A stretch of 64,000 bases of DNA from an uncultured Candidatus Binatia bacterium (lineage in GTDB: Bacteria; Desulfobacterota; Binatia; Bin18): assembly GCA_965232605.1 (NCBI GenBank), contig CBDDQA010000003.1, positions 337,618 through 401,617 on the forward strand. Reading direction: 5' to 3'. Under the pieces are notes generated by a model. That model was given only the letters and a program-made list of their open reading frames with translations. It was not told where the DNA came from and made no database searches. This document shows, piece after piece, positions 4,628 through 31,104 of this stretch. Numbering within the stretch: position 1 is the first letter of the stretch; every line of letters begins with the position of its first letter. The position numbers and the translations under genes are program-made.

Positions 4628-4706
4628 GTTATGCCGCCTTCCTGGGAAAGGTTCCGTCTCCACAGTGTTGCGAGACGATAGCCCTTCGCCTACAATCCGC
4701 CCACAT

Positions 4707-4791
4707 GCCGGAGTGGTGGAACTGGTAGACACATGGGACTTAAAATCCCATGGGGCTTTGCCCCGTGCGGGTTCGAGCCCCGCCTCCGGCA
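4707..4791 (+). tRNA. tRNA-Leu, anticodon TAA (type II, long variable arm)
   Basis: Acceptor GCCGGAG/CTCCGGC + discriminator A; D-arm GTGG..AACTGGTAG; anticodon stem TGGGA/TCCCA with loop CTTAAAA (U33, TAA, A37); variable arm GGGGCTTTGCCCC; T-arm GGGTTCGAGCCC; no encoded CCA. Confidence 0.8.
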
Positions 4792-4836
4792 TGGTAGAAA
4801 TGACTTTCCCTCCCGTTTCCGCCGCAGCCGACCTAG

Positions 4837-5705: not shown

Positions 5706-6785
5706 CTAATATCTCGCGATGACCTGTTCGGCAAAATCCTTGTAGACTGCGCGGCTTGTCTTGAGCGGCGGCAAAAGAGAAATCTCTCGGAGCCCGGCCT
5801 GCTCGGCCTGGCGGATGGCCGCGATCAGTTCATCGGGTTCACCGACCATGCACGACCCTTTAATCGTTTTCGGCGTGATGAATTTGCGCTCCTCAGGGAC
5901 ATGGTAGGTGCAGTGCCCATCATGAATCTGAAGGTAACGTTTGGCCTGGGGCGTTTCCATGTTCTCGACCTGATCCCGATACTCCTCCCACACGTCCTGA
6001 AACGACTCGGGCACGGTGCTCTCATCCCCGGTTTGTTCGTAAATTTCATACACAAAATGCAGGGCGCAGGTGACCCAGGAGCCACACGCCTCGATCACCC
6101 GGTCCGAGGTTAAGTCTTCGCCCGGTTTCAAGACGACCGCCGTGGTCAGGGCCGTGGTATGAAAATTCTCGGGCAAGGTGCGCCCGGCTCGCTCGGCCCC
6201 GGCCTGTACCCGGCTGACGTTCGCCTGCAAGACCTCACCCTGTTCGTTAAACAGGGACACCAGCCCATCGCCAAACTCTCCCGCGGTGCGGAGAGCCAGC
6301 GGTCCATTGGCTGCAACGTAGATGGGAATCGGCTGTTCCAGGTCAATGAATTTCAGGTCCTGATGCAGGAATTTGATCGTCCGCGTCGTTCCATTCAGGG
6401 TATACTCGACCTCTCCCCCGCGCAGCAGCGTGCGGACCACGCGCAGGTATTCACGAAAATCTCTGATCTTCATAGGCTGCATGCCCATGACCCGCATGGC
6501 CGTATGACCGGTCCCCACGCCAAGGAAGGTCCGGCCAGGGGCGAGGCGGTTAATCGAGGCAATAGAGTGCGCGGTCACCGGGGCAATCCGCGTCCCCGGA
6601 ATCGCGACCCCGGTCCCGATACGCAGGCGCGAGGTGTGCTGGGCGGCCAGCGCCAGAGTGGCGTAACAGTCCGACCAGATCATCTGGGAATCAGGCACCC
6701 AGGCCGCGTCAAAGCCTAAATTCTCAATATAGGGATACAGGTCCCAGTTATCGATTTTGGTATGGGCCGTAATACTGAATTGCAT
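5706..6785 (-). CDS. luciferase-like monooxygenase (LLM) family / F420-dependent-type oxidoreductase
   Basis: Product MQFSITAHTKIDNWDLYPYIENLGFDAAWVPDSQ... TIM-barrel LLM signature; GAGGAGG RBS 6 nt upstream of ATG 6785; stop codon TAG is comp(5706..5708), i.e. inside the IS flanking CTAA. Confidence 0.8.
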   Translation of the reverse strand: MQFSITAHTKIDNWDLYPYIENLGFDAAWVPDSQMIWSDCYATLALAAQHTSRLRIGTGVAIPGTRIAPVTAHSIASINRLAPGRTFLGVGTGHTAMRVMGMQPMKIRDFREYLRVVRTLLRGGEVEYTLNGTTRTIKFLHQDLKFIDLEQPIPIYVAANGPLALRTAGEFGDGLVSLFNEQGEVLQANVSRVQAGAERAGRTLPENFHTTALTTAVVLKPGEDLTSDRVIEACGSWVTCALHFVYEIYEQTGDESTVPESFQDVWEEYRDQVENMETPQAKRYLQIHDGHCTYHVPEERKFITPKTIKGSCMVGEPDELIAAIRQAEQAGLREISLLPPLKTSRAVYKDFAEQVIARY

Positions 6786-6980
6786 GCGATGCCTCCTCGT
6801 CAGTGTGTCACCGCCTGTCTGTATCATTCGTTCCGGGCAACCGCAATTTCTCCGCCCTGCCCTTTGGTCGCCGCCTTTGACTCGCCTGGCTTCCCACTTT
6901 AAGTTGAGAGTGAGTCTGCGGGCGGTCAGCCGATATCCGACCAGATGGGACGGCTGCGGCCGGCTCTACGGCATAGGACC

Positions 6981-8234
6981 ATGTTACGTCGTTATCCTGA
7001 CACGACCGGAGAATTTTCTATCAGCCTGATTTTCTGGCTCTGCGTGGTCGGAGCCGGCCTGCTCCTCGCCGGTTGTCAGGCGAAGCGCCCTTCCCCGTTC
7101 ATGCACCAGGAGCCCGCACGAGCTGCCGTTCAGTCAGCCCCACCACCCACGCCGCAGAGAGAAGCAGCAGAAGTAGACGACCCGGAGGCAGAACTGGCCT
7201 GGGATTTTTTAGCCCGCGTCGATGAGATGGGCATCATTGCTCCGCATCCTCCGCCGACCGAGTCCGTTCCACCCGAACTGCCGCCGGCCCAGCCTGACGA
7301 CCCTCTGCCGCCCCTGCCGGCGCTCGGTCCTCCTCAGGCAGGAGCGTCCTCGGGCTGGCTCACCTGGATGCCGGGCTTGTCTCCCGACGAGACAGGTCCG
7401 AATGGCAATACGCAGTATCGGACCGAACAAGACCTTCTCAAAGCGGTCGCCGAGTTTCAGCGCGTGGCGACAAAAGACACCTACCGCTTTCCGCTCCCCA
7501 AAGATGTGACCGGAGCCAATGTCCATAAGGCGACACTCACCCGTATCAACGATTATGAAACCAGGCACCCTGGGGCCTATCCCGCCGTTATCGCCTTCAC
7601 GCGGGGGCGGGCGTATGAGGGGTTGCACGCCTATGAACAGGCCCTGGCCGCGTATCAACGCGTCGCCCAGGGCAAGAGCCGCCTCAAACAGGAAGCGCTG
7701 AAAGCCGTTGAAGCGCTGACCGCCTTTCAGGCGCTCGCTCAGCAGGCACCGACAGCCACCACCGCTCTTGAGTATGTGCAGGCGCTTGACGAGCAGGCGC
7801 GCCAGTGGCGAGACCTCGCCCAGCAGTATGACAACACATCGTACGGGACCCTGGCCCGGGAAGAAGAAGAACGGCTTGACCAGGCGAGAGTCGCCTTCTT
7901 TATCCTCAACCGCTACCGGATTGAGGATGGCAACGAGAGCGTCATCTTGGCCTATCAGCAGTTACTTGATAAACACCGGGAGAGCAAAAACCGCTATCGG
8001 TATCGGCTGGAACTCGGGGACTTCTACGTGACCCTCGCCCGCGAATATACGGCCCAGAACGACCCGGAAAGTCTCCGTTTTGATACGAACATCTTTGAAG
8101 CCCTGGGACGAGCGGCGCTCCAGCATTACGCCACGGTTGCGCAACAGGACGGCATCATGGAAAAACTTGAAGCCAAGGGCAAACTCGAAGCGCTTGAAGC
8201 CTATATGGCCAGGGTCGGACGTTTAGGCCGCTAA
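6981..8234 (+). CDS. hypothetical lipoprotein, proline-rich N-terminal region, helical (TPR-like) C-terminal half
   Basis: ORF 6945..8234; lipobox LLLAGC after hydrophobic stretch; start ambiguous (6945 or 6981). Confidence 0.55.
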   Translation: MLRRYPDTTGEFSISLIFWLCVVGAGLLLAGCQAKRPSPFMHQEPARAAVQSAPPPTPQREAAEVDDPEAELAWDFLARVDEMGIIAPHPPPTESVPPELPPAQPDDPLPPLPALGPPQAGASSGWLTWMPGLSPDETGPNGNTQYRTEQDLLKAVAEFQRVATKDTYRFPLPKDVTGANVHKATLTRINDYETRHPGAYPAVIAFTRGRAYEGLHAYEQALAAYQRVAQGKSRLKQEALKAVEALTAFQALAQQAPTATTALEYVQALDEQARQWRDLAQQYDNTSYGTLAREEEERLDQARVAFFILNRYRIEDGNESVILAYQQLLDKHRESKNRYRYRLELGDFYVTLAREYTAQNDPESLRFDTNIFEALGRAALQHYATVAQQDGIMEKLEAKGKLEALEAYMARVGRLGR

Positions 8235-8255
8235 GCGGCCCGAAAAGAAAACGCC

Positions 8256-10301
8256 ATGTGGTATCGGGTCCTCCTTCTGCTGCTGTGTTGCCAGCTCGTG
8301 TCCGCGCCGCTTCTGCACGCGCGGGATTTTGCCGACCCCCTGGCCCAGCGGGTGACGGAGTTTCTGCCGGCCTATAATCCGTTTGTGCCTCCGTTGCCCC
8401 CGGAACGCTACTTTCCAGATGCAGTCGGCAGACAGGTGGCCGACGCGATTATTGACGGCTACCTGGACGATTCGTCGGCATTACGCGGCAGAATCGGACA
8501 ACTGGCGCAGCACGACACCCAGCTCGAAACGCAGGGAGAGGAGACCACGGGCGTCACCCCCCTGGTGTATGCGCTGCTGTACCGGTCCGTAGAGCAGGAC
8601 GAGCAAGAGGAACTCCCGCTTATTGAACTGGACGCGACGCCGGATGCACTGCTCTCCCAGGCCGACCGCCTCTACGCCTCGGAAAGGCGCCACCGGGTTG
8701 GCCGGCTGTTCAATTGGGCGCTCTCGACCTTTGACGTGGCTCGGCTGTTTCTGGGCGCGCCCGCCAGCCCAAGTCCCTACGCCGCCCAAGGCGTCGTCTC
8801 TTCGGTGAGCCAGCGCTCAGGACCCAGTCCGCGCGAGCGAAAAGCCCTGGCCCTGTATCGGCGCTTCCTCGCAGAAGCCCCGGATGACCCGCGGGTCCCG
8901 GAAGTCCGAGCCAGGATGGAGGCCCTGGATACGAAACGAAAAAAGGCCGTTGTGAAAGCTGAGTTAGCCCAGGCCGAGCAGGCCTTCGCTGAAGAAGACT
9001 ACTGGAAGGCCAATTTCCATTATCAACTCGCCCTGCTGGTTGATGAAACCGCTGAAGAAGCCAGGGCTGGGGTCCGGCAAGTCGAGTCCCGCCTGCAACA
9101 CTATGACGCGCTCAACCAGTACGACCCGGAGGCTCCCCAAGACCCGCTGGCCGGCGTGAAACAGGCCGAGTGGGAGCACAGCAAAGAAACCTTGACCTAT
9201 ATGCTGCCGGGGAGCGGTTTTGTCAAAGACAATGTCGTTGTGGCCGGCCTCCAACTCGGCACGGAAGGGCTGGTTGGCGCAGCGACCTTTGGCGGGCTGA
9301 CCATGGTCCAGACCTTGGGAAAACTCTGGAAGGTCATGACCGGACGAGCCGTCTCCCAACAAGGCATTATTGCTGCGGGCGAAGAGTACTTGCAGCAGAC
9401 CCCCCCGGAGGAACGCTCCCCGGAGATCTACCCCCTCCTGGCCAAAGCCTATGCCAGGGAAGGCAAGGTGGAAAAAGCCATTGAGTACTACACCCTGGCC
9501 GGCATGGAAGAAGAGATTCCCGAGCTCCGGGAGAACGCAGCAACGGCCCTGCTCGAACAGGCCACCTCCAGTCCGCATCACACAGAGAAGCAGGCATATC
9601 TGCGTCGTCTACTGGAGCAGTATCCCAAGACTGAGGCGGCCAAAGAAGCGGCGGAGGAATTCCAGCAGCTCAGTCGGCCTGAAAACCAGGGCTTACGGCT
9701 CACGAAAAGATTTCTGCGCGACAACCCGGACCTGTTCGGCGTCCAGGGGCTCGGCCTCAAACGGGAGCTGTATGACGGCGACTGGCGGAATGTTGAACTC
9801 ACGGACGACGGCATCATCCTCTCTCCGCACGGCGACATTACCCTGCGCTTGGAGAGTGACACCGGCCCTCGCACCAAAGTGTACGGGGTGCCCACCGCGT
9901 CGTGGCAGCAGTTTTGGCGCAAGTTCCGGGAAAAGGGCTATGAAGACGCCTTCTACCGTGGGGACCGGAAAATTGCCAAATTGGTCCGAGGGGCGGAGCC
10001 CGCGGATATCACCCTCAGAAGTCAGTTTGAAAAAAATGACGCGGACGGCTGGCGCGTGCTGCCCTATCTGACCGGGAGCCTGGGAGAAGGGTTCGACGTC
10101 CGGGGGACACTGCCCAGAGATATCCTCGGGACCCGACTGGCCTTTGGCAGGGACCAGTTCAGCAGCTATGTCGGCCTTGACGTGCCCCTGCCGCTCGTGC
10201 CGGTTGACTTTCTCCTCCTCGGCCGCGACGGCCTCCCCTCACTCTACCCGCGTATTCGGCTGCCGGACCATACGGTCAAGCACGAGGAGTTGTACCGCTA
10301 G
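8256..10301 (+). CDS. hypothetical secreted protein (681 aa), helical/TPR-like repeats
   Basis: Long ORF with N-terminal signal-like segment MWYRVLLLLLCCQLVSAPLLHA; co-directional with preceding lipoprotein gene. Confidence 0.55.
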   Translation: MWYRVLLLLLCCQLVSAPLLHARDFADPLAQRVTEFLPAYNPFVPPLPPERYFPDAVGRQVADAIIDGYLDDSSALRGRIGQLAQHDTQLETQGEETTGVTPLVYALLYRSVEQDEQEELPLIELDATPDALLSQADRLYASERRHRVGRLFNWALSTFDVARLFLGAPASPSPYAAQGVVSSVSQRSGPSPRERKALALYRRFLAEAPDDPRVPEVRARMEALDTKRKKAVVKAELAQAEQAFAEEDYWKANFHYQLALLVDETAEEARAGVRQVESRLQHYDALNQYDPEAPQDPLAGVKQAEWEHSKETLTYMLPGSGFVKDNVVVAGLQLGTEGLVGAATFGGLTMVQTLGKLWKVMTGRAVSQQGIIAAGEEYLQQTPPEERSPEIYPLLAKAYAREGKVEKAIEYYTLAGMEEEIPELRENAATALLEQATSSPHHTEKQAYLRRLLEQYPKTEAAKEAAEEFQQLSRPENQGLRLTKRFLRDNPDLFGVQGLGLKRELYDGDWRNVELTDDGIILSPHGDITLRLESDTGPRTKVYGVPTASWQQFWRKFREKGYEDAFYRGDRKIAKLVRGAEPADITLRSQFEKNDADGWRVLPYLTGSLGEGFDVRGTLPRDILGTRLAFGRDQFSSYVGLDVPLPLVPVDFLLLGRDGLPSLYPRIRLPDHTVKHEELYR

Positions 10302-10601: not shown

Positions 10602-12155
10602 CTACGCATTCGCGGCGTAGAAGATAAACTCCACGTCTCCGATACGGACCTGCATACCGTCTCTGAGAAGATTTTCGGCAACCTTTCTCCCATTGATGTA
10701 GATGCCGTTTCGGCTCTGTAAATCGAGCAGCACATAGCCCTGTTTGACTTTTTTTATGCGCGCGTGTTCGCGCGATATCGAGGAGTGGAGAATAATCGCC
10801 TCGCATTCCTCTCCACGACCAATCGTCATCTCATCGCGGGAAAGCGCGATTTCGCGCGGCGCTTCTTCGAACGGGCTGTGGCGCACCAGGCGGGCGTATG
10901 GCGCAGCGGTCTTCGGCACGGCCGGCTCAGGGACTGCGTTCTGGCCGGTGGAAGCGGGGCTGCGGGTGGCCGTCTTCACCAGACTCAACACCTCAGCCGG
11001 AATCTCATTCAGTCGGACGCGCGCCAACAGCAGCAACCCTCCGGCGGCCAGGAGCGGCACCACCATATTCCACACCCCATAGGCAATAACGGTTTGCGGC
11101 TGGGTGGAACCCGGTCCTGAACTGCTGGGAACGACGATCGCGCCGCCAATCCCACGCACCTGATAGGACACCCGCGCCTCCCCTTCCCCGTTCGGATGCT
11201 GAAGGGTCAGCACGACGTCGCGTTCCGCCCCGTCCTCGACCGGGCGGGGGCTGGTATACGTCAGGAAATACTGCGAGGCGAGCGAGCGGCCGATCTCGCT
11301 GATCAGTTCGGGAAAGCGTTCTCCTTCACTGACGATATTGTAATGCCGCCCGGCGCTCTCCTTGGCGATCCGATGCAGGTCGGGGGCCATAAAGGGCGGC
11401 GGAGAGATGGCATAGACGTTCAGGCTCGCCTTTTTGATTTCCGCCAGGACTTCCGCACCGGACAGTTGGGTGATCTCTCGACCGTAGGGATTGTTTTTTT
11501 CCGAGCCGTCCCCGCGCGTATGATTGGGGGCGTCGGTAATCAGGACGAGGACCGCCTGGGCATCGGGCCGAAACGGAAAGCGGCTGGCCAGCAGCAGCGC
11601 ATCGAGCGAGTTCTCCGGGATATCCCCCCCGCCGGCTGGGCGTAGCGCGCCAACCCAGCTTTTGAACTCTCGGGCGCTCCGGGTAAACACCCGCTCGTCC
11701 CGAATCACATAATCCTCAAACGTCACCAGGCCCAGGCGGTAATCCCGGTTGGCCTTGGCCAGACGGTCGGCAAAATCAATGGCCGCTTCTTTCATCCCGT
11801 CAATAAACGGCCCCATGCTTTCCGTGACATCGAAGACCACCACGATATCGACCGGCCGGCCCTGTTCTTCGCCCCGGAAGTCAATGATCCGGGCGTCCTG
11901 CCCGTCCTCCTGCACGCTCACATGCTCCGGCGTGAGTTGTCCGACCGGCTGCCCACCCAAATCGGTCGCATTAAAATACAGGCCAACGGCGCCGCCATTG
12001 GTAAAATTCTCCAGTTGAGGGTTGGTGACAGAGACAACCACCGAATCGGCCGCAGAGACGCGCGGTGTCAACGGCGAGCAGAAGGCAAGGCAAGAGATGA
12101 ATACACACACAGCTTGGGTGTAGCTCTGCCGAGAGGACCGGGCTTTCAATCGCAT
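10602..12155 (-). CDS. signal peptide + extracytoplasmic vWA domain (MIDAS DVTESM) + TM helix + cytoplasmic FHA domain protein
   Basis: 517 aa; vWA motifs VVVFDVTESMGPF..GGGDIPEN..LITDA; TM VIAYGVWNMVVPLLAAGGLLLLA; FHA C-terminus MTIGRGEECEAIILHSSISREHARI...NGIYINGRKV; GAGGAG RBS. Confidence 0.85.
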   Translation of the reverse strand: MRLKARSSRQSYTQAVCVFISCLAFCSPLTPRVSAADSVVVSVTNPQLENFTNGGAVGLYFNATDLGGQPVGQLTPEHVSVQEDGQDARIIDFRGEEQGRPVDIVVVFDVTESMGPFIDGMKEAAIDFADRLAKANRDYRLGLVTFEDYVIRDERVFTRSAREFKSWVGALRPAGGGDIPENSLDALLLASRFPFRPDAQAVLVLITDAPNHTRGDGSEKNNPYGREITQLSGAEVLAEIKKASLNVYAISPPPFMAPDLHRIAKESAGRHYNIVSEGERFPELISEIGRSLASQYFLTYTSPRPVEDGAERDVVLTLQHPNGEGEARVSYQVRGIGGAIVVPSSSGPGSTQPQTVIAYGVWNMVVPLLAAGGLLLLARVRLNEIPAEVLSLVKTATRSPASTGQNAVPEPAVPKTAAPYARLVRHSPFEEAPREIALSRDEMTIGRGEECEAIILHSSISREHARIKKVKQGYVLLDLQSRNGIYINGRKVAENLLRDGMQVRIGDVEFIFYAANA

Positions 12156-12181
12156 GAGAGTCTCCTCATTGTCCGACCTGC

Positions 12182-13039
12182 CTACTCCTTGCCGGCCCGC
12201 TCTCGGAAGAGGAACAGGGTTCCGCCGACCTCTACCCGGTCGCCGTTTTTCAGTTGGACCGGCTGGGTAACCGGAGTCCGGTTGACGCTGACCTGGCCCT
12301 CGTTTTTGGCAAGCACAAAAGTATGCTGACGTTTTTCGACCACCGCGTGCAGGTTGGCGATGGAACGGTCGCCAAACAGGCCGACATCACTTTCTTCGGC
12401 TCGACCGATTGTCGTTTTGGGCTTGGTCAGATGGTATTCACGGCCTTCACGGGCATTGCGGCTTTGCGAGCGAATCACCATAAACCAGCCGCGCTTCAAT
12501 ATCTCGCTGACCAGACCAATCCAGAGACCGATCATGGCTCCCAAAATGGCCAGGGCAACCCCGCGACCAGCCGTCTGCGGCAGGAGGGCGGTGACCAGTT
12601 GAAAGAGCGCCCCCCCGATGGCTCCGCCAATGCAGCCACCAATCGCGCCATTGCGTAAACGGACCAGCGATTGGCCGACCCAGCCGGCTCCCAGTCCGAC
12701 GGCCAGCCCAAAAATCCCCCAGCCGATAACGCGCCCGCCAAGACCGCCAAACAGGCCAAACACCAACTCTCCCATGAGGAGGCCAATCGCCCCGCCCACC
12801 AGACCGGCGAGTCCACCCAGCTTCACCCCCTGCCAGGTCTTGTTCTTATGCCCCGCGCTGAGCCCTTCAATGGCCCCCATGAACGCGCCAACACACACAC
12901 CCGTCACGCCACCCAGGGCCATGGCCCGGAGATAGACATTCCCCATCGCGGCCAAGGGGTCAGCCACGGCCCAGCCGGCAAGACCGCCCAGGAGACCGGC
13001 TCCGCTATACAGGACAAGGCGTTCGCGTGAAAGTTCCAT
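12182..13039 (-). CDS. polytopic glycine-zipper membrane protein with C-terminal FHA domain
   Basis: 285 aa; multiple Gly/Ala-rich TM segments then TIGRAEESDVGLFGDRSIANLHAVV...VSVNRTPV..LKNGDRVEVGGTLFLF; GGAGGAG RBS. Confidence 0.8.
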   Translation of the reverse strand: MELSRERLVLYSGAGLLGGLAGWAVADPLAAMGNVYLRAMALGGVTGVCVGAFMGAIEGLSAGHKNKTWQGVKLGGLAGLVGGAIGLLMGELVFGLFGGLGGRVIGWGIFGLAVGLGAGWVGQSLVRLRNGAIGGCIGGAIGGALFQLVTALLPQTAGRGVALAILGAMIGLWIGLVSEILKRGWFMVIRSQSRNAREGREYHLTKPKTTIGRAEESDVGLFGDRSIANLHAVVEKRQHTFVLAKNEGQVSVNRTPVTQPVQLKNGDRVEVGGTLFLFRERAGKE

Positions 13040-13092
13040 ACTCCTCCGCTCAAAGTCTGCTCAACGCCCCACGTGTATGCCAACAGCCGCCA

Positions 13093-15480
13093 TCATGACC
13101 CGACCTGGAGTTGCAGGGACCAGTGTCCGCTCACATTTTCGGACGACCCGACACGGTAGGTTCCGCTGAGCCGATTTTCTTCACGCCAGCCCTGGAAATG
13201 ATACACGCGATTCCCAACCGCACTGGTAAACTCAATCTGGTTGCCCTGCGTTGTGCCTTCCAGAGAGGCGGCACCAAAGCCGCGCGCGTGAATCACCAGG
13301 CGGCCACGCAAGGCCCCATTACTGTGCGGTTGAAAATGCACTTCAAGCAGAGCCTCACGCTCGGGGCCGAGCCCGAGGATGCTTCCCTGGTGCGAGGCCA
13401 GGATATAGGCCAGGTCCCGGTCGTCCGTGACGCTGAAGGTGCTGGCCGAGAGCGGATAGCCGTTGACATAAAAGTCAACTCGATACTCGCCGGGGAGAAA
13501 GGCGCCGCCGCTGGCATTGCCGATTCTGGCCGTAAAAGTGACCTTCTCTGCTTTGTCCGATACATCCTTTCCGTCTTCGACCGTCCCCAGAATCTGGCCG
13601 TTGGGGGCAAAATAGGTTGCGGTGACCCGGTGGTGAGAGGGCAACAGGGCATGGAGTTGATTCTGAAAATCCGCCTCCCAGGCCAGGTATCGGAGTTGGG
13701 ACGTGCCGAACGAACTCGCGGATTGAGACAGTTTGCTGCCGTCCTGCGCCGTATTGAAAAAGCGCACGGCGAGCAGAGAAAGCGGCTCTTTGCTCTTTTC
13801 CTGGATGAGGGCCAGCCGTTTTTCCTCGGCGGCGCGCCGTGCGACCTCTTCCTCCGGGGTCGGCCCACTCGCGACCGGGACATCTGACCCGCCAGCGACA
13901 CCGCTCTCTTTTTCTTCCGCCACGTCGGCTGCTACGACCTGGACCGGGTCCGGTTCAATTCGGACCGTGTGGCTGGCCAGCCTGGCATCCCCGAGATAGA
14001 GATCGAGCTGGTAATCACCGGTCGCCCGCTCCTTGAGTCCCTCAAGCAGGGTCACGCCGCGCAGTTCAAGCGCCTCCTCTTCGGGCCGCACAAACCGACC
14101 GGCCTCGCTTTTCCCGGCCAGGCCGCCTTCAGGGTCGAAAAAGCGGCCTTCCAACCGATGATTCCCGCCTTCAACCCCGAACAGCCTGTTTTTCAGCGCC
14201 GCTTCCCAGGTCAGGTATTGCACCTCGCTCAGCGTATAGCTGTCCTTGACCTCCGACAGGGGCGTGCCGTCCCGCGAAGTATTGACCAGGTTGAGGGAAA
14301 CCAGTTCGAGCGGGTCGGCCCGCAGCGCGCGCAAGCGTTTCTCCCGCTCCCAGGGTAAATCCGCCACAAAGGCCCGAAACCTTGGCCGCTGGGATTCCGG
14401 CAGCCAAGTTTCAATCTGCTGCCACGGAATCCTTTCTCCCACGCGCTCAATCGGGTTGCCGTGCAGCAGCTCAGGAGAGGTGAACAGGCCATACGCCCCG
14501 CCACTCAGCAGCAATAAAAAAACCAGGGTTGCTACCATCCGCCCCCAGCGCCGTTTCTTTTGCGGCGGCTCAGCTGCGAGGGGCTCTGCAACCGACTCCG
14601 ACAGCGGTTCCAGGATTTGGGTCGCGGCTTGGGACGAACTGGGCGGACCAGCCGCGCTCAGGCCACGCCCGTACAGAAACATGTCCTTGAACGCTTCCGC
14701 GCTCTTGGGCCGCTCTTCGGCTTTATACGCCAGGGCCTGATCAATCGCCTGGGCGAGAAAAGGAGAGGCGTCGGGTTTCTCCGAGAGTACCGGCGGGCAT
14801 GAAAACGGCGGATGTTTCTCCGGATCCCGACCGGTCAGGATATAGTGCAGGGTGGCGGCCAGGCCATAAATATCGGACCGTTCATCGACCTGTCCGGAGT
14901 ATTGCTCGGGCGGGGCGAATCCAGGGGTGCCGATCAGGGTGGCCTTGCCCTGGGGGGAAAAAATCCTGGCGATGCCAAAGTCAATCAGCGTGATGCGTCC
15001 GTCCGGTCGCAGGATCACATTGCCCGGTTTCATGTCCCGATAGATGATGGGCGGAGAAAAACTATGCAGATAGGTCAACACATCGCACAGCTCCCGGCCA
15101 ATCTCGATGACCCGGCTTTCGGGAAATTGACCGCCCAATCCGGCGATTTCCTGTTCCAGGTTGATCCCCTCGATAAAGTCCATCACCAGATAATGGCAAT
15201 TACCCTCACCAAAGCGATCGAAAATAGCGGGAATGGCCGGATGGGTGAGCTGGGCCAAGGTGTCGGCCTCTCGATGAAAATACTCAATGGCCTGAGCCCG
15301 CTCCTCGGGGTTCGTGAACCGATCAAAAATTTCCTTGATAGCGACCTGTCGCTCAGCCAGCCGCTGGTCCTGAGCGACATAGACGACACCCATCCCGCCG
15401 CCGGCCAGAAAACGCTCAATCTGATACCGGCCCGCCAGGACCGTTCCAGGTTCGAGTTGACCGCTTTCATTTCGCGACAT
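13093..15480 (-). CDS. Hanks-type Ser/Thr protein kinase (catalytically intact) + TM + ~440-aa extracytoplasmic region with internal tandem duplication
   Basis: GGGMGVVY P-loop, AIKEI, YRDMKPGNVIL, DFGIAR, APPE; TM VATLVFLLLLSGGAYGLF; start chosen at ATG comp(15478..15480) (MSRNESGQLEPGTV) to avoid overlap with upstream gene; two homologous ectodomain segments (...LTWEAALKNRLFG... / ...LAWEADFQNQLHA...). Confidence 0.85.
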   Translation of the reverse strand: MSRNESGQLEPGTVLAGRYQIERFLAGGGMGVVYVAQDQRLAERQVAIKEIFDRFTNPEERAQAIEYFHREADTLAQLTHPAIPAIFDRFGEGNCHYLVMDFIEGINLEQEIAGLGGQFPESRVIEIGRELCDVLTYLHSFSPPIIYRDMKPGNVILRPDGRITLIDFGIARIFSPQGKATLIGTPGFAPPEQYSGQVDERSDIYGLAATLHYILTGRDPEKHPPFSCPPVLSEKPDASPFLAQAIDQALAYKAEERPKSAEAFKDMFLYGRGLSAAGPPSSSQAATQILEPLSESVAEPLAAEPPQKKRRWGRMVATLVFLLLLSGGAYGLFTSPELLHGNPIERVGERIPWQQIETWLPESQRPRFRAFVADLPWEREKRLRALRADPLELVSLNLVNTSRDGTPLSEVKDSYTLSEVQYLTWEAALKNRLFGVEGGNHRLEGRFFDPEGGLAGKSEAGRFVRPEEEALELRGVTLLEGLKERATGDYQLDLYLGDARLASHTVRIEPDPVQVVAADVAEEKESGVAGGSDVPVASGPTPEEEVARRAAEEKRLALIQEKSKEPLSLLAVRFFNTAQDGSKLSQSASSFGTSQLRYLAWEADFQNQLHALLPSHHRVTATYFAPNGQILGTVEDGKDVSDKAEKVTFTARIGNASGGAFLPGEYRVDFYVNGYPLSASTFSVTDDRDLAYILASHQGSILGLGPEREALLEVHFQPHSNGALRGRLVIHARGFGAASLEGTTQGNQIEFTSAVGNRVYHFQGWREENRLSGTYRVGSSENVSGHWSLQLQVGS

Positions 15481-15493
15481 CGACCATGCCTCG

Positions 15494-17194
15494 CTACTCG
15501 TAAAAGACCACGACCACTGAGGTATTATCGCTGCCACCGGCAGTATTGGCCGCAACCGTCAATTCCAGGGCGGCCTCGTGCGGGGTCCGGTGGCGACTCA
15601 CAATGTCGGCAATCGCCGGGTCAAGGACATGGCTGGTCAGCCCATCGCTGCACAAGAGGAGACGGACGCCGCGCTTCAGCCGGCGCGAGAGCGTATCAAC
15701 CTTGACGTTTTCCTTGCTGCCCAAAGACCGGATCAGGACGTTGCGGTGCTCGTGGGTCAACGCCTCTTCTTCGGTCAGTTGACCGATTTCGACCAAACGG
15801 GCGACCAGGGAATGATCGTGCGAGAGCAGGTGCAAGGTCCCGTTTTCCAGCAGATAGACCCGGCTGTCCCCAACCCAGGCCAGCGCCAGTTGTCCGGCCT
15901 GCATCAACGCGGCAACGATCGTGGCCCCCAGGCCAGCCGACTCGGGATGATCTTTTCCGTATTGGACAATCCGGGTATTGGCCGTCTCGACCGCCTCGCG
16001 CAAACAGCGCTCCCAAGCGGCAACATCGACTGCCTCTTCCGCTCCAGCCCAGGCGGCTTCGACATGGCGGGCGACGGTCCGGATGGCAATCTGACTCGCC
16101 ACCTCCCCGGCTTCGGCGCCACCCATCCCGTCTGACACAATATACAGCCCCCGGAAATCACTGCCGGCTATGCTGCCCCGCCCGACCTCTTTGACCAGCA
16201 CGGCATCTTCGTTGTGGTCACGCACCTGTCCGACATCGGTCCGCCAGGCCGAGCGGATGTGCCCGGACTGACTCAGCCCGAGCAGGTCGTGTTTCAGCGC
16301 GTGCAGGTCGGCATAGCGCTCCGCCGGCTCAAGGGCCAAGGTTCTGCTTAAAACACGCTCGAACTCGGGGGTCAGGACTTTCTCCGGATAGAATACGGGT
16401 GGCTCGGGCTGAACCGCCCAGCCCTCAACCGGCAGGCGCCGCCCGACCAGCACGGCATACAAGCATGCCCCAAGCGCAAATACGTCCGCGGCTTCGTTTA
16501 ATACCTGGGCCTTATATGCCTCGGGCGCAGCATAGCCGTCCGTCAATACGGGGTTCTCCTCAATCGAGTCTTTAAGACGAATCGCGTCGAATCGGGTCAG
16601 GTGCAGACGGCCCGTCTTGTCGAGCAGGATATGCTCCGGCGGCAGCTCAACGCACAGGAAGCCGTGCCGGTGCAAAGCGCCCACGGCCTGACAGAGCTGG
16701 ACACCCCAGCCGGCCGCCTCCCGCTCCGCTGTCCGGCCAATGCGCTGACTCAACGGCAGACCGGACTGATGCGGGGTGACGAGGTAGACCCGGCCGTCAC
16801 GTTCACAACGTTCCTGGGGGAGAATCAGGGCCGGATGGTAAATCTCGGCCAACTGTTCGGACAAGCGAAACGCGCCACCCAAATGGGCATCGGCCTGGTC
16901 GCGTGACCGTTCCGCTATGAGATAGGCTTGGCCGTCGTCAGTCTGACGAACCGCCCGGTAACGATTTTCCTGTCCGGTCGAGAGGAGTGCGGTCAGACGA
17001 TAGGTATCGGCCAGAACGGTGCCGACCGGCAGCGGTTCAAGGGCGGGAGATGACTCCCCCTCGCCGTCTTCTTCAAGCGCGACGCCGCAGGCCGTACAAA
17101 ACGTTTCGCCGATAACATTGGCCTGTCCGCACTCACCACAAACGTAACTCTCCTCGCGATCCGTCGGCTCGGTCATCAGCGGCGCGGAACCCAT
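15494..17194 (-). CDS. zinc-ribbon + degenerate kinase-like (pseudokinase) domain + C-terminal PP2C-family Ser/Thr phosphatase
   Basis: N-term CGECGQ..CTACG; kinase-like region lacks GxGxxG, has HRHGFLCVELPPEH (no HRD) and TRFD (no DFG); PP2C motifs LYIVSDGMGGAEAGEVAS...DNTSVVVVFYE. Confidence 0.8.
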   Translation of the reverse strand: MGSAPLMTEPTDREESYVCGECGQANVIGETFCTACGVALEEDGEGESSPALEPLPVGTVLADTYRLTALLSTGQENRYRAVRQTDDGQAYLIAERSRDQADAHLGGAFRLSEQLAEIYHPALILPQERCERDGRVYLVTPHQSGLPLSQRIGRTAEREAAGWGVQLCQAVGALHRHGFLCVELPPEHILLDKTGRLHLTRFDAIRLKDSIEENPVLTDGYAAPEAYKAQVLNEAADVFALGACLYAVLVGRRLPVEGWAVQPEPPVFYPEKVLTPEFERVLSRTLALEPAERYADLHALKHDLLGLSQSGHIRSAWRTDVGQVRDHNEDAVLVKEVGRGSIAGSDFRGLYIVSDGMGGAEAGEVASQIAIRTVARHVEAAWAGAEEAVDVAAWERCLREAVETANTRIVQYGKDHPESAGLGATIVAALMQAGQLALAWVGDSRVYLLENGTLHLLSHDHSLVARLVEIGQLTEEEALTHEHRNVLIRSLGSKENVKVDTLSRRLKRGVRLLLCSDGLTSHVLDPAIADIVSRHRTPHEAALELTVAANTAGGSDNTSVVVVFYE

Positions 17195-17253
17195 ACGTCA
17201 CCAGTCCACTGAAGGTTCTCGGTTTCGCCAGTTCCAGAACGGCCAAGCCAGCC

Positions 17254-17913
17254 TCATTGCGCGCGCGACACCTTGAAAAAGGTTTTGCCGACGATGATCT
17301 CGTCGCCGTCTTTGAGCGGAACGGGCGAGCCGGGCTCAAGGCGTTGTCCCCGATTGATAAACGTCCCGTTCAGGCTCCCGATATCTTCAATCGTCAGCTC
17401 GGCCCCGAATTTTATCAGCGCGTGTTTGCGGGAGATACGTGCTTCCGGGTCGTCGTTTTCCATATCAACTTCAGGAAAAGAACCGGAATCCGGGTCCCAC
17501 CGACCCACCAGATTGTCTCCGGCCTGGAGCTCAAAGACTTTTCCCACAGTGCCCCCCCGGGTGATGGTGAGCGAAGCGCTGCCGACCGCTGCCTGGTCAT
17601 CGCTGAGAGCGGCGACTTCGGGCACGGCTTCTTCTGCCGGAGTCTCCGGAGGCACATCTCCGGCCACCTCCGTACTCTCCTCAGCCGCCTCGACACTCGC
17701 CTCGTCCTCAGCTTCAGCCGTTTCAGCCATAGCTTCTTCTGGCACAGCTTCTTCTGCTGCGGCCTCCGTACTGGCCTCAACTTCTGCGGGAGCTTCCTCT
17801 GTGGTCTGGACTTTACCCAGAACGATCGCTCCGGCTTCAAGTTTCGCTCCGCAGCTATCGCAGTACTCCAGGCCATCCATTTGTTCTTCATTGCATTCCG
17901 CACAGCGAATCAT
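17254..17913 (-). CDS. zinc-ribbon + acidic linker + C-terminal FHA domain protein
   Basis: MIRCAECNEEQ..CDSCG; Glu/Ala-rich linker; FHA NLVGRWDPDSG..ARISRKHALIKF..NGTFINGQ; AAGGAG RBS before ATG at 17913. Confidence 0.8.
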   Translation of the reverse strand: MIRCAECNEEQMDGLEYCDSCGAKLEAGAIVLGKVQTTEEAPAEVEASTEAAAEEAVPEEAMAETAEAEDEASVEAAEESTEVAGDVPPETPAEEAVPEVAALSDDQAAVGSASLTITRGGTVGKVFELQAGDNLVGRWDPDSGSFPEVDMENDDPEARISRKHALIKFGAELTIEDIGSLNGTFINRGQRLEPGSPVPLKDGDEIIVGKTFFKVSRAQ

Positions 17914-17951
17914 TCTCACATCTCCTTCATGGGCTGCATCTGGGATGAAGC

Positions 17952-19241
17952 TTAATCTTGCAGCGCGTCTTTGACGCTCTCAGGGTCGAGTTGCTGCGTC
18001 TTGCGGAGGCTTGCCTGAGCGGTGAGCAACTGAGTCTTGGCTGCCCCGGTCGCAAGACTCTGGGTTTTCTTCAACTCACTCTGGAGCCCCTCAAGCGCTT
18101 GGGTTGCTTTCGCATTTCCCAGTCGCTGCGTACCGGCTATGGCATTCCCCAACAGCCGTGTGGCTTTATCCGTATTGCCGGCAGCCATAGCCGCCTCGGC
18201 CTGCAACTGAATTTTGGCCACACTGACCTGATCGACCAGATTCATCACATAACCGTTGGCCTGGCCAAGGGCCGAGCGCTCAAGCGTGTAATGCACCACC
18301 ACGTCCACGCTTTCGTGCTGGTTTCTGGCCTCGGGCGTATCGTAGTACAGCTCAGCTTGCGCCAGCCGAACCCGGCCGGGTCGGCGGGGCGGTAAGACCA
18401 AGACGGCTAAGGCCGAACTTGGTGTTCCTGCTTCAATATCTCCCAACGGCAGAGAGAGCGTCCGGTTGGCGTCGGGTGTCGTCTCTTTGATCGGGTAAAT
18501 CTGAGGGCTGGCGCGAAAGGCTTCTTTCACCTGCACCCCGGCGCTGAGTTGCATCTCAATCCGCGCGTTGGTCAGGGCGACATTCCGCAGTCCCTGGAGT
18601 TCATTGGAGAAAATATTCGGAATGGAGGCCGGAGCGTCAATAAAATGATAGTTTGCGCCACTCTCCTCGGCCATTTCCATCAGCAGCTTTTCATTGAACT
18701 CGATTCCGACCCCGAGCGTGCTGCACGAAACACGGTCGCGGTGTTGACGGGCAAGATCGAGACATTTGCGCTCCTCGTACGTCTGACCGTCGGTCAGAAG
18801 CAACAGGCGGTTCAGGCGGTTCGGCGAATAATACTTCTCCACCTCGGCCAGCGCGGCTTCCATGCCCAGGGCCATTTGCGTCCCGCCACCAATCTCCAGG
18901 AGATCGAGATCGTCAATGGCCCGCTTCACTCCGGCGGCATCCGCCGTGACGCGGTCTGCGGTTGCCGCCACTTCGGCCCGGTCGGCAAACGCGACCACCG
19001 CGGCCTTGTCATCCGGACCAAGATTATCAATCAGATATTTGATGGCCTCGATGACATAATCAAGCCGCTGTTCGTCGTACATCGAACCGCTGCGGTCAAG
19101 AACAATGCCAAGATTGAGCGGCAGGCGTACCCCCCCACCCTGCGGCTTGGTCTCCATGAGCAGGTACAGGATGAAATTTTCCGCACTGCTCAGAACGGCA
19201 TCACGGCTTGTCAGCGCTTGGAACCCAACAGCACCAGACAC
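17952..19241 (-). CDS. cytoplasmic vWA-domain protein (TerY-like) with C-terminal coiled-coil
   Basis: MIDAS DRSGSM, TDG, no signal peptide; C-terminal 100 aa heptad-like (AKIQLQAEAAMAAG...LKKTQSLATGAAKTQLL); GTG start with AAGGAGG RBS. Confidence 0.8.
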   Translation of the reverse strand: MSGAVGFQALTSRDAVLSSAENFILYLLMETKPQGGGVRLPLNLGIVLDRSGSMYDEQRLDYVIEAIKYLIDNLGPDDKAAVVAFADRAEVAATADRVTADAAGVKRAIDDLDLLEIGGGTQMALGMEAALAEVEKYYSPNRLNRLLLLTDGQTYEERKCLDLARQHRDRVSCSTLGVGIEFNEKLLMEMAEESGANYHFIDAPASIPNIFSNELQGLRNVALTNARIEMQLSAGVQVKEAFRASPQIYPIKETTPDANRTLSLPLGDIEAGTPSSALAVLVLPPRRPGRVRLAQAELYYDTPEARNQHESVDVVVHYTLERSALGQANGYVMNLVDQVSVAKIQLQAEAAMAAGNTDKATRLLGNAIAGTQRLGNAKATQALEGLQSELKKTQSLATGAAKTQLLTAQASLRKTQQLDPESVKDALQD

Positions 19242-19324
19242 GAAAGCCTCCTTATTACCGAGGAATTTATTGAATTTTTTATCTCACGTTTTTTGCCGGG
19301 GAGCAATATAACTCCCAGGCAGGA

Positions 19325-19822
19325 TTACTCCTCCGGCTTACGAAACTGGTCGTGACAGCCCTTACATGTTCCGAACATCTTTTGCATATGTTCTTTGACC
19401 GAGGCGGCATTGTTTTCTCCCGCAGCCACGGTCAGCGCGTTCGCTTCCGTACCCAACTCCGTGGCGGAGGCAATGAATGCGTCCCAGTTCTGCCAGATTT
19501 CTTCTTTGGCCCGAGAGGAATCTCCACTGCTGCCCTCGGGAAAGAGAGCGGCGACGCGAGTCGAATGCAGGGCAATAGCCGCGGCATTCATTTTGGCCTC
19601 TTCGAGCTTGCCGGCGTCAATCTTGCCTTTCATCTCCTTGGCGTTGGCCCCGATGTTGTCCATCAGATAGGTCCGAAACGCCACCGTCTGCTGCGGGTCC
19701 GGCATCTGAGTCGGATGGTTTTCGTGCCCGAAACTCAGCCCACCCAGGCTGTGCAGCCCCCCTGCCACCACACCCACACTGATGCACACTCCACGAACGA
19801 TACGAATGACTCTCCTTGTCAT
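19325..19822 (-). CDS. class II cytochrome c (cytochrome c-prime/c556-like)
   Basis: 165 aa, signal peptide, four-helix-bundle-like sequence with single C-terminal heme motif CKGCH. Confidence 0.7.
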   Translation of the reverse strand: MTRRVIRIVRGVCISVGVVAGGLHSLGGLSFGHENHPTQMPDPQQTVAFRTYLMDNIGANAKEMKGKIDAGKLEEAKMNAAAIALHSTRVAALFPEGSSGDSSRAKEEIWQNWDAFIASATELGTEANALTVAAGENNAASVKEHMQKMFGTCKGCHDQFRKPEE

Positions 19823-19852
19823 GATACTCCCTCCTCTTACGAAAGACCTGCG

Positions 19853-20758
19853 CTATTCCTGTTCTGCCTGACGCCTTGGCGCAACCGATTTCAGATATGC
19901 GGCAACAGCGTGGGCATCTTCATCCGTCATGTCTTTGTACCCGCCCCCAGGCACCCCATCAATCACCACCGCCATCAGCCCTTGGACGTTATCAAAATTC
20001 GGAAGAAACCCGGTGCGCAGCAGGGAAACGATCTCCCCTTCACTCCACCGTCCGATACCTGTCTCGTCATCCGGGGTGATATTGGGCGCGACCTCGCCGT
20101 CAATACCGGCCGGATTCCCGGCCAGGTCGCGCGTCCGGTCAAGCGTGCCAAACACCGTGCGCGGGGTATGGCATTCCTGACAATGGGCGAGGTGTTCGCT
20201 GATGTAGCGGCCTCGGGCAATGGGGTCTGCCCAAGCGGCAGACCGGGTTTCGACCGGCTCAAAAAACAGCCAGCGCCAGGCGCGCATGGCCAGCCCGGAA
20301 AACGGAAGGGAGACTTCATGGGGGAGATTTTCTTGCGCCACGGGCTCCAGGCTGCGCAGAAAGGCCACCAGCGCCGTGGCGTCTTCATCCGTCATACCGC
20401 CCAAGGCCGGATACGGCATAACCGGACTCATGACCGTCCCGTCGGGTTTCACCCCCAGCCGGATCGCATCAATGATTTCCCGGTCCGTCCAGGTTCCAAT
20501 CCCATGGACCGGGTCGGGTGTGATATTCGTTCCGTAAAACCGCCCGTAGGGGGTTTCAATCCACCGCCCACCCGCGTTGGTGGATCCCTTGGCCGCCGTA
20601 TGACAGCCGCACCCGCCGGCCAAGGCAAACACATACTGCCCCTGGGCAACGAGGGTCGCCTCATCAGCCCAGACCCTCGGTAGAGGGCTGAACAAAAAGC
20701 TGCACAGCAGCAAAAGACAGAAAAGCCGCAAAGCGCTCTTCTCGCCCGCGTTTTTCAT
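19853..20758 (-). CDS. diheme c-type cytochrome
   Basis: Signal peptide MKNAGEKSALRLFCLLLLCSFLFSPLPRVWA; two CxxCH motifs (CGCH, CQECH). Confidence 0.75.
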   Translation of the reverse strand: MKNAGEKSALRLFCLLLLCSFLFSPLPRVWADEATLVAQGQYVFALAGGCGCHTAAKGSTNAGGRWIETPYGRFYGTNITPDPVHGIGTWTDREIIDAIRLGVKPDGTVMSPVMPYPALGGMTDEDATALVAFLRSLEPVAQENLPHEVSLPFSGLAMRAWRWLFFEPVETRSAAWADPIARGRYISEHLAHCQECHTPRTVFGTLDRTRDLAGNPAGIDGEVAPNITPDDETGIGRWSEGEIVSLLRTGFLPNFDNVQGLMAVVIDGVPGGGYKDMTDEDAHAVAAYLKSVAPRRQAEQE

Positions 20759-31073: not shown

Positions 31074-31104
31074 CTAGGATACATGACAAAGGGGAGACCC
31101 CGCC

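Follow-up and report, generated by a model that had tools for sequence, protein, structure and literature searches.

The window, which is the whole 64,000-nucleotide (nt) stretch of an uncultured Candidatus Binatia genome that was analyzed here, contained six open reading frames (ORFs) at 10602-19241, all on the minus strand and all located where the initial annotation had placed them. The genes, which we refer to as g1 to g6 from the 5' end of the operon, encoded a vWA protein (g1), a zinc-ribbon FHA protein (g2), a zinc-ribbon pseudokinase fused to a PP2C phosphatase (g3), a Hanks-type receptor kinase (g4), a polytopic FHA membrane protein (g5), and a vWA-FHA protein with a transmembrane (TM) segment (g6). 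The results presented below suggested that the operon probably specifies a vertically inherited and self-contained transmembrane serine/threonine (Ser/Thr) phospho-signaling complex, with a proposed mechanism that involves TQxL motifs, FHA domains, and a PP2C phosphatase. The operon did not define a new category of system. Instead, it was an enlarged and lineage-specific variant of a known module, which consists of a kinase, a pseudokinase-PP2C protein, a vWA protein, and a zinc-ribbon FHA protein.

Domains of the six proteins

The initial annotation had described a co-directional and tightly packed Ser/Thr phospho-signaling cluster, and this description was borne out by the ORF coordinates, the short gaps between genes, and the Pfam and NCBIfam domains. 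Specifically, all of the domains that had been named were recovered when g1 to g6 were searched with Pfam and NCBIfam profiles.

By motif criteria, g4 is an active Hanks-type Ser/Thr kinase. The catalytic signatures GGGMGV, VAIKE, READ, YRDMKPGN, DFG, and APPE were all present, and they were conserved in 24 orthologues. The kinase domain was followed by a juxtamembrane segment, in which an ATQxLEPL motif was conserved, by a single TM segment (residues 314 to 335), and by an ectodomain of 460 amino acids (aa) that is encoded at 13096-14475. The ectodomain carried an internal duplication (local alignment score of 170; z = 30 relative to shuffled sequences), and it was composed of two β-sandwich repeats and a third, C-terminal, avidin-like β-barrel domain. 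Thus, the intact motifs and the repeat agreed with the earlier description of g4 as an active kinase with a large duplicated ectodomain. The ectodomain was lineage restricted (79 homologues in a set of 5.8 billion proteins), and its first β-sandwich produced a weak match to DUF6941 (E = 0.0067). A metagenomic protein of 661 aa (P0193) contained about half of a g4-type ectodomain and an integrin-like vWA domain; this protein may have arisen by the joining of g4-like and g6-like parts, or it may be an artefact of gene calling.

The g3 protein matched the Pfam models Pkinase (E = 2e-15) and PP2C. Neither the β3 Lys nor the DFG Asp was present in the kinase-like domain, which contained CVE in place of HRD and (R/Q)(F/L)D in place of DFG. 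This degenerate state was conserved across the Binatia orthologues. Among the 14 distant pseudokinase-PP2C fusions that were examined, none had the β3 Lys or the DFG Asp, 3 kept the HRD Asp, and most carried an N-terminal zinc ribbon. Because the loss of catalytic residues was conserved, we classified the N-terminal half of g3 from its sequence as a pseudokinase (i.e., a kinase fold without one or more of three residues, namely the β3 Lys, HRD Asp, and DFG Asp). As for the C-terminal half, the PP2C metal-binding motifs RDHNED (RxHNED), DGMGG, GDSR, SDG, and GGSDN were invariant, and the score of g3 against the NCBIfam Stp1/IreP model (Stp1_PP2C_phos) was 229 bits, 1 bit under the equivalog cutoff of 230 bits. 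This half looked like an active PP2C/PPM phosphatase of the Stp1/IreP/PstP type. The zinc-ribbon pseudokinase-PP2C fusion that had been assigned to g3 was therefore upheld, both by the Pfam and NCBIfam matches and by the conserved loss of catalytic residues.

Similar assignments were obtained when a low-confidence AlphaFold2 (AF2) model of g3 (pLDDT 64) was searched with Foldseek: the N-terminal half matched PknG, PknB, and Stk1, and the C-terminal half matched STP and PstP (E = 1e-16), as well as tPphA and PppA. An exhaustive search with a g3 profile yielded at least 40 clusters (50% identity) that matched across both the kinase-like and PP2C halves. In the literature on pseudokinase-PP2C proteins, we found no specific description of such a family. 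A PP2C-fused family is not listed in a 2025 review of bacterial pseudokinase families (PMC12599244), and the sole architecture of this sort listed by Krupa and Srinivasan (2005) was PP2C plus kinase, from Pseudomonas and Deinococcus. Hence, the pseudokinase-PP2C component may be under-described.

In the case of g1, no TM segment or signal peptide was predicted, and the metal ion-dependent adhesion site (MIDAS) of its vWA domain (DRSGS...GGGTQ...LTDGQ) was intact, with residues that were invariant across lineages. All five TQxL motifs of g1 were located in its C-terminal 95 residues, and the 334 residues before them contained none. When the tail was shuffled 5000 times, the mean number of TQxL motifs was 0.26 and the maximum was 3. 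Five to six TxxL motifs were kept in the tails of g1-type proteins from Binatia, a deeper lineage, Bacillota, Xenobia, and Deinococcus radiodurans (DRA0331), all of which are considered below. The five TQxL motifs of g1 are putative phospho-acceptor and FHA-docking sites, and we infer their phosphorylation because of the analogy with the Sulfolobus vWA protein ArnB (PMC6509490). When a profile of the g1 family was compared with known structures, it matched Protein Data Bank entry 4FX5 (E = 1e-20; g1 residues 45 to 403), ArnB (8S05_A; E = 8e-16), and the ArnB paralogue vWA2 (5A8J; E = 4e-15).

FHA domains were found in three of the proteins. The g2 protein contained a CxxC...CxxC zinc ribbon that weakly matched the Pfam DZR model, and its architecture was that of Sulfolobus ArnA and Anabaena FraH. 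The g2 FHA domain was canonical (GR, SRKH, and NG were conserved in orthologues), and g2 matched the ArnA structures 5A8I and 8S05_C with E values of about 1e-5. The g6 protein contained hydrophobic segments at residues 15 to 33 (signal-like) and 356 to 382 (TM), and it matched the Pfam models VWA, VWA_4, Integrin_beta, and FHA. Its vWA domain, which was predicted to be extracytoplasmic, carried a MIDAS-like variant (DVTES...GGGD...TDA), and its FHA domain, which was predicted to be cytoplasmic, was canonical (GR, SREH, and NG); the motifs of both domains were conserved in orthologues. The third protein, g5, was a glycine-rich polytopic protein that also matched the Pfam model Yop-YscD_cpl (E = 2e-10). 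The g5 FHA domain was divergent: the Arg of GR and the His were kept, but the Ser of SxxH (A, S, or L at this position) and the Asn of NG were not conserved. The g5 orthologues were 71 to 97% identical across Binatia and 52 to 54% identical in the deeper lineage.

The Pfam and TM scans agreed with the earlier descriptions of g2 as a zinc-ribbon FHA protein, g5 as a polytopic FHA membrane protein, and g6 as a secreted vWA-TM-FHA protein, and the predicted topologies of g1 and g6 supported the proposal that the two vWA domains are on opposite sides of the membrane. The proposal that the operon encodes three FHA readers of phosphothreonine (phospho-Thr) held in part; three FHA domains were present, but canonical phospho-Thr-binding motifs were found in two of the three (g2 and g6). 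In one Binatia metagenome-assembled genome (MAG), g5 and g6 were in a single frame without an intervening stop codon (L025 12434-14788). Either the two genes are truly fused or the assembly is in error, and a fusion would be topologically consistent if the g6 signal peptide acted as a TM segment.

Conservation in Binatia and in other phyla

The closest relatives of g3 came from Candidatus Binatia MAGs, and we used tblastn to compare the six operon proteins and their neighbors with 40 fetched loci. A search for the same gene order in other genomes had been suggested in the initial annotation. The full six-gene order was kept in about 28 Binatia species, with identities that ranged from 97% down to 55%; the refuting outcome named in that annotation, a gene order kept nowhere else, therefore did not occur. 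The flanking genes were also conserved; cytochrome c', cytochrome c, and CoA-transferase genes were located upstream, and two convergent genes and a luciferase-like monooxygenase gene were located downstream. The entire backbone (EF-G, tRNA-Leu, luciferase-like gene, two genes, operon, cytochrome c', cytochrome c, and CoA-transferase) was kept to 55 to 58% identity. The GC content of the operon (0.605 to 0.612) equaled that of the surrounding window and was uniform across the region. Based on these sequence comparisons, the operon appears to be a vertically inherited chromosomal core locus of the Candidatus Binatia bacterium.

A segment bracketed by insertion sequences (IS) next to a tRNA gene, and possible horizontal acquisition of the operon, had also been proposed. 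The first part of this proposal was correct. Two IS5-family copies flanked the region; they were inverted and 82% identical, and each contained a DUF4096 orfA and a DDE orfB. Each copy abutted a luciferase-like monooxygenase gene, and a tRNA-Leu gene was present. However, the acquisition part of the proposal did not hold up. Relative to other Binatia, the left IS5 copy was inserted between the tRNA-Leu gene and the luciferase-like gene. In the five relatives that spanned the left site cleanly, the tRNA-Leu gene, at the end of the EF-G/tRNA-Leu block, was at most about 30 nt from the luciferase-like gene, with no IS in between, and IS sequence was found in none of the 40 fetched loci. Because the IS copies were absent from relatives, the backbone was conserved, and the GC content was typical, the comparison indicates that the two copies are later insertions into an ancestral locus and that the operon is not an acquired island. 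A composite transposon or another route of horizontal transfer was therefore rejected as the origin of the operon, even though the IS pair is real.

These results also bear on the idea that the operon is a stress, conflict, or defense system. The TerY-P triad, which consists of a TerY-like vWA protein, a PP2C phosphatase, and a Ser/Thr kinase, was reportedly described by Anantharaman et al. in 2012, and Gao et al. are said to have listed it as a defense system in 2020. The operon resembles this triad in that genes for a cytoplasmic vWA protein, a PP2C, and a Hanks kinase are clustered. A TerY-P type of system for conflict or for defense against phages, horizontally acquired on an IS-bounded segment by a tRNA gene, would account for this triad logic, for the two flanking IS5 copies and the adjacent tRNA-Leu gene, and for the matches of the kinase domains to generic PADLOC models such as PD-T4-6 and mad6. 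However, the PADLOC kinase matches were limited to the catalytic domain that is common to all Hanks kinases. Apart from generic kinase and PP2C matches, the PADLOC scan produced nothing, and no model matched g1 or g6 or any other vWA or FHA protein of the operon. The initial annotation had labeled g1 as TerY-like and part of a TerY-P triad, and this label was not supported, since g1 scored 19.8 bits against the vWA-TerF-like model PF10138, under the cutoff of 29.4 bits. Other differences from the triad were the integral FHA proteins and pseudokinase and a genomic context that was that of a syntenic core locus rather than an island. In addition, the IS copies were absent from related loci, in which the tRNA-Leu gene lay beside the luciferase-like gene wherever the fetched DNA covered the site cleanly, the operon and its flanks were syntenic in about 28 species and had no atypical GC content, no nuclease, toxin, or other effector was encoded in the operon, and the core module neighbored rpoB and rpoC in a Bacillota MAG. 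We rejected the defense assignment; a TerY-P type of origin and function is largely refuted by these data and is very improbable.

In a deeper lineage, in which the g4 ectodomain was 34 to 36% identical, a five-gene core was surrounded by unrelated flanks. The gene order in this lineage was vWA, zinc-ribbon FHA, an extra kinase-FHA gene, pseudokinase-PP2C, receptor kinase, polytopic FHA, and a lipoprotein of 240 to 259 aa, which was unrelated to g6 and occupied its position. The flanks were different, and therefore the cluster is held together independently of its neighborhood.

We also fetched the genomic contexts of three distant g3-type fusion proteins. In a Bacillota MAG, the fusion gene adjoined a kinase gene, two zinc-ribbon FHA genes, and a gene for a 429-aa vWA protein that aligned with g1 along its full length (36% identity), and this core module was located beside rpoB and rpoC. 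A DUF6941 gene also adjoined the Bacillota core module (L043 6599-7021), which may hint at a sensor domain in common with the g4 ectodomain. In a Candidatus Xenobia MAG, the fusion gene adjoined a gene for a 429-aa vWA protein (39% identical to g1), a zinc-ribbon FHA gene, and another FHA gene; the fetched stretch contained no called kinase gene. In the third lineage (P0210), three kinase genes, the fusion gene, and a g1-like vWA gene were followed by the end of the contig.

The same core was identified by blastp and hhalign on chromosome II of D. radiodurans, where it corresponded to DRA0331-0334. The vWA protein DRA0331 was 27% identical to g1 over g1 residues 13 to 418, which included the tail, and the DRA0331 tail contained the motifs MTQRLGN, MTQALD, and KTQTL. 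The g3 family profile matched DRA0334 with an hhalign probability of 99.9% (E = 7e-32) over g3 residues 132 to 563, which included the C-lobe of the pseudokinase. Taken together, the sequence comparisons suggested a four-gene core that is present in several phyla and that consists of an active kinase, a zinc-ribbon pseudokinase-PP2C protein, a vWA protein of about 430 aa with a Thr-x-x-Leu-rich tail, and a zinc-ribbon FHA protein. The Binatia additions to this core were the receptor ectodomain, the polytopic protein with the divergent FHA domain, and the vWA-TM-FHA protein.

Known systems and a proposed mechanism

The closest known counterpart of the operon was the Deinococcus cluster. All four core proteins were homologous; as in g4, the DRA0332 kinase is active and has a membrane anchor, and as in g2, DRA0333 contains a zinc ribbon, a linker, and an FHA domain. 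On the other hand, the gene order differed, the identities were just 27 to 36%, g5, g6, and the large receptor ectodomain were missing, and the DRA0332 kinase itself carries a zinc ribbon. DRA0334 is a Mn2+-dependent phosphatase, and its noncatalytic N-terminal domain boosts autophosphorylation of the kinase and restrains the PP2C domain, whereas the FHA protein DRA0333 competes with this N-terminal domain (bioRxiv 10.64898/2026.01.23.701218). In the same study, residues of about 210 to 368 of DRA0334 were annotated as "KI-FHA." In our alignments (DRA0334 is encoded at L046 10724-12574), this region aligned with the C-lobe of the g3-family pseudokinase and contained an APE-like motif (LTAPEV), and Pfam detected neither a kinase nor an FHA domain in it. 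Based on the alignment, the "KI-FHA" annotation may need to be revisited.

For the g1-g2 pair, our comparisons suggested that Sulfolobus ArnA and ArnB are the best experimental model. ArnA is a 223-aa protein with a zinc finger and an FHA domain (g2 has 221 aa). ArnB contains a vWA domain, a β-sandwich, and a C-terminal helical domain, which parallel the vWA domain, middle domain, and Thr-rich tail of g1, and the MIDAS is intact in both proteins. Thus, a zinc-finger FHA protein was paired with a three-domain vWA protein in both cases, and g1 and g2 were adjacent. The phospho-Thr sites of ArnB are all located in the C-terminal helical domain, which is the domain that ArnA binds; phosphorylation by the kinase ArnC converts a loose ArnA/ArnB complex into a tight complex, in which the exposed ArnB domain is held by the ArnA FHA domain (PMC6509490, PMC12852372). 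The two systems also differ. ArnA and ArnB are archaeal, their kinases are ArnC and ArnD, their phosphatase is of the PP2A type rather than PP2C, and no pseudokinase is involved. Moreover, the ArnB phospho-sites are TT or TxxxT pairs rather than the TQxL motifs of g1, and similarity was detected only in the vWA and FHA cores. The output of the archaeal pair (archaellum repression or a DNA damage response) need not hold for the Binatia operon.

The three-part architecture of g2 is also that of FraH from Anabaena, which consists of a zinc ribbon, a Pro-rich linker, and an FHA domain. FraH has a role in filament integrity and in the organization of heterocyst membranes, and in this respect it differs from g2. 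DRA0333 has been termed a FraH orthologue (bioRxiv 10.64898/2026.01.23.701218), and our search for literature on FraH together with zinc ribbons found nothing specific. Cyanobacterial plasmids (Nostoc, Trichormus, Tolypothrix, and Gloeothece) carried vWA genes that matched g1 residues of about 114 to 414, including the C-terminal region, and these genes could link the module to FraH-type proteins.

The initial annotation had compared the operon with the PpkA/PppA/Fha pathway of type VI secretion systems and had noted the lack of secretion genes. The second observation was confirmed, as no type VI secretion genes were found among the 17 other ORFs that were scanned (about 0.1 to 34 kb of the window), all of which had metabolic, translation, cytochrome, or transposase functions or no Pfam match, and none were found beside the module in the fetched neighborhoods of other lineages. 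The resemblance itself was general rather than specific. As in the operon, a TM Hanks kinase and a PP2C are combined in the Pseudomonas aeruginosa PpkA/PppA/Fha1 pathway with a vWA domain in the periplasm and with an FHA protein that reads phospho-Thr. However, the vWA domain of PpkA is fused to the kinase, whereas it sits on a separate FHA protein in the operon, and the scores of g2, g5, and g6 against the TagH/Fha1 model TIGR03354 were 27.5 to 34.6 bits, compared to a cutoff of 120.25 bits.

A broader version of this comparison is that the operon is a post-translational regulator of a secretion, adhesion, or gliding machine whose genes lie elsewhere in the genome, with PpkA/PppA/Fha1 and the Myxococcus Glt/Cgl FHA and vWA proteins as precedents. 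The combination of a kinase, a PP2C, FHA domains, and an extracytoplasmic vWA domain fits this idea, the NCBIfam models of TagH, GltG, and CglD were matched weakly at the level of domains, and the modeled g3 PP2C domain appeared to resemble PppA, among many PP2C structures. Still, the family scores were far under the cutoffs for TagH (27 to 35 versus 120 bits), GltG (18 to 29 versus 650 bits), and CglD (21 versus 400 bits), and, in addition to the unfused vWA domain, secretion and motility genes were absent both from the 17 scanned ORFs and from the genes that adjoined the module in five other lineages. We therefore regard control of such a machine as distinctly unlikely.

The rival with the most in its favor is a module for cell envelope or division homeostasis akin to the mycobacterial PknB/PstP/FhaA/FhaB(FipA) cluster, in which the phosphorylated MviN pseudokinase recruits an FHA protein. 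The g4 kinase domain was closest to the PknB/Stk1 model, the g3 PP2C domain was closest to Stp1/IreP, the FHA domains of the operon matched FhaB/FipA and GarA/OdhI, and the operon behaved as a conserved core gene set. A pseudokinase-FHA precedent is also on record (PMC12599244, ActPs3). Against this, the match of g4 to the PknB_PASTA_kin/Stk1 model was confined to the kinase domain and scored 175 bits, compared to a cutoff of 450 bits; g4 had no PASTA domains, and its ectodomain was a different, lineage-restricted fold. The FhaB model scored 23 to 49 bits, well under its cutoff of 125 bits. Furthermore, none of the scanned ORFs was an ftsW/rodA, pbp, or mviN gene, and the pair of a vWA protein and a zinc-ribbon FHA protein has no counterpart in the mycobacterial cluster. 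An envelope or division role of this kind is unlikely, but less so than the other two rivals.

In the phospho-signaling complex that we favor, a periplasmic cue would be sensed by the g4 ectodomain, possibly as a small ligand in the barrel, and the g6 vWA domain may contribute. The g4 kinase would then autophosphorylate at sites that include the conserved juxtamembrane TQxL site, and the cytoplasmic FHA domain of g6, and perhaps that of g5, would dock on this site to form a membrane complex. The g1 tail, with its five TQxL sites, would be the next substrate of g4; once phosphorylated, the tail would be bound by the FHA domain of g2, and the g1-g2 pair would shift between loose and tight states, as in the case of ArnB and ArnA. 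The g3 pseudokinase would tether the phosphatase to the kinase, or it would allosterically stimulate the kinase, and the g3 PP2C domain would subsequently remove the phospho-marks and reset the system. The tether and reset step is supported by the Deinococcus data, in which the N-terminal domain of DRA0334 stimulated the kinase and held back the PP2C domain, and in which the FHA protein was a competitor of this N-terminal domain.

Several points weigh against this mechanism. The TQxL tail of g1 could have a structural role, as a helical repeat, and not be a series of phospho-sites. When g1 was compared with ArnB, similar sequence was detected only across the vWA domain; the three-domain architecture of both proteins was deduced from the match of g1 to 4FX5 and the published structure of ArnB. 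The g5 FHA domain, which is without two canonical residues that contact phospho-Thr, may not read phospho-Thr. The AF2 model of g3, with its pLDDT of 64, was too poor for an assessment of the pseudokinase pocket, the packing of the domains, or the docking of the pseudokinase on the kinase. Finally, the organism is known from MAGs only. None of the six genes encodes the physiological target that would lie downstream of the complex.

We also considered, with less confidence than the phospho-signaling reading itself, a more specific idea, which is possible but somewhat short of an even chance. The operon would represent a widespread bacterial counterpart of the ArnA/ArnB switch that is hard-wired to a receptor kinase and an undescribed pseudokinase-PP2C family; the pseudokinase would be the arm of the phosphatase that docks on or activates the kinase, and Binatia would have built a six-protein transmembrane complex with a lineage-specific, avidin-like ligand sensor. 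If this is true, the pseudokinase-PP2C proteins would be a new class of bacterial pseudokinases, as the 2025 family review (PMC12599244) does not include them, and the "KI-FHA" region of DRA0334 would need a new interpretation, namely that of a kinase domain that has degenerated. If the mechanism is right, the operon provides a simple and testable design in which a vWA scaffold carries a multisite Thr tail, FHA domains read this tail, and a phosphatase with its own pseudokinase docking domain erases its marks. Through one four-gene module, the operon joins three hitherto separate literatures (DRA0331-0334, ArnA/ArnB, and bacterial pseudokinases), and it comes from Binatia, an abundant uncultured lineage of soils and sediments in which scarcely any signaling has been characterized.

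Gene starts, promoter, and neighboring features

The coordinates of the operon genes and of nearby features are shown in Table 1. Two of the gene starts were revised from the orthologue alignments. The start of g4 is most likely M26 (ATG at 15480) because distant orthologues aligned only from residue 25 or 26 on; from this start, g4 begins 13 nt past the g3 stop codon, whereas the annotated g4 ORF overlaps g3. The start of g2 is probably the ATG at 17913 because g2 orthologues begin with MIRCAEC. With the corrected starts, the intergenic gaps from g1 to g6 were 32, 59, 13, 53, and 26 nt, so the range of 26 to 59 nt in the initial annotation became 13 to 59 nt. Likewise, the ribosome binding sites of the Shine-Dalgarno type that had been assigned to the operon were found in part, as AGGAG/GAGG-like motifs preceded five of the six genes and none was evident for g3.

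Table 1. Features of the operon and its surroundings in the window
Feature	Position	Strand	Description
g1	17952-19241	-	429 aa; vWA domain, middle domain, C-terminal tail; Pfam VWA E = 1e-16
g1 tail Thr cluster	17988-18131	-	Residues ~371 to 418; GTQRL, ATQAL, KTQSL, KTQLL, KTQQL
g2	17254-17919	-	221 aa; zinc ribbon, acidic Ala/Glu/Pro-rich linker, FHA (Pfam E = 8e-14)
g3	15494-17194	-	566 aa; zinc ribbon 19 to 36, predicted pseudokinase ~55 to 315, PP2C 319 to 563
g4	ORF 13093-15555; 13093-15480 from M26	-	795 aa; Hanks-type receptor kinase; Pfam Pkinase E = 3e-30
g5	12182-13039	-	285 aa; five to six hydrophobic segments, C-terminal FHA (Pfam E = 7e-9)
g6	10602-12155	-	517 aa; signal-like segment, β-rich N-terminal domain, VWA, TM, FHA (Pfam E = 7e-16)
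Promoter-like motif 5' of g1	19278-19306	-	From the alignment of g1 upstream regions of 28 Binatia loci
tRNA-Leu gene	4706-4792		
Left IS5 copy	4832-5708		
Luciferase-like monooxygenase gene	5706-6827	-	Abuts left IS5 copy
Right IS5 copy	30202-31078		
Luciferase-like monooxygenase gene	31105-32175	+	Abuts right IS5 copy

The promoter-like motif upstream of g1 consisted of a -35-like TTGCTC (19306-19301), a 17-nt spacer, and an extended -10-like TG-A-GATAAA (19283-19278). The consensus TTGC(T/A)C, 17-nt spacer, and TG-A-GATAAA were present in all 28 Binatia loci, and the TTGC and AAAC(G/A)TG.GAT cores were invariant or nearly so. We infer from this conservation that the motif is a promoter. A generic promoter and terminator scan gave nothing informative for the region, and it overlooked the g1 upstream motif owing to its fixed rules. 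The 5' end of the operon was placed after the cytochrome c' gene because the promoter-like motif lies between this gene and g1. The cytochrome c' and cytochrome c genes, which are co-directional and syntenic in Binatia, were considered as operon members and rejected because the motif separates them from g1 and because they are absent in the deeper lineage and in other phyla.

Two plus-strand genes that are convergent on g6 (6945-8234 and 8256-10301) were conserved in Binatia and had no Pfam or PADLOC match. One of the two products is a predicted lipoprotein with a LAGC lipobox and a Pro-rich linker, and a signal peptide was present in the other (681 aa). The pair (6945-10301) was considered as part of the system, and this is unlikely, as both genes were absent elsewhere. 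Antisense ORFs on the plus strand were found over g2 and g1 (17273-17974; 233 aa) and over the cytochrome genes (19352-20683; 443 aa); they had no Pfam match and were probably artefacts of the high GC content.

An Rfam scan of the window found only tRNA and tmRNA. The tmRNA gene was located at 32291-32645 on the minus strand and encoded the tag peptide ADDFDYALAA. Two families of short, GC-rich palindromes were also present. The first family (47 nt) occurred at 52210-52256, 52409-52455, and 53883-53929, with a T-run after the repeat, and was similar to repetitive extragenic palindromic elements or to terminators. The second family occurred at 55097-55138 and 58123-58164.

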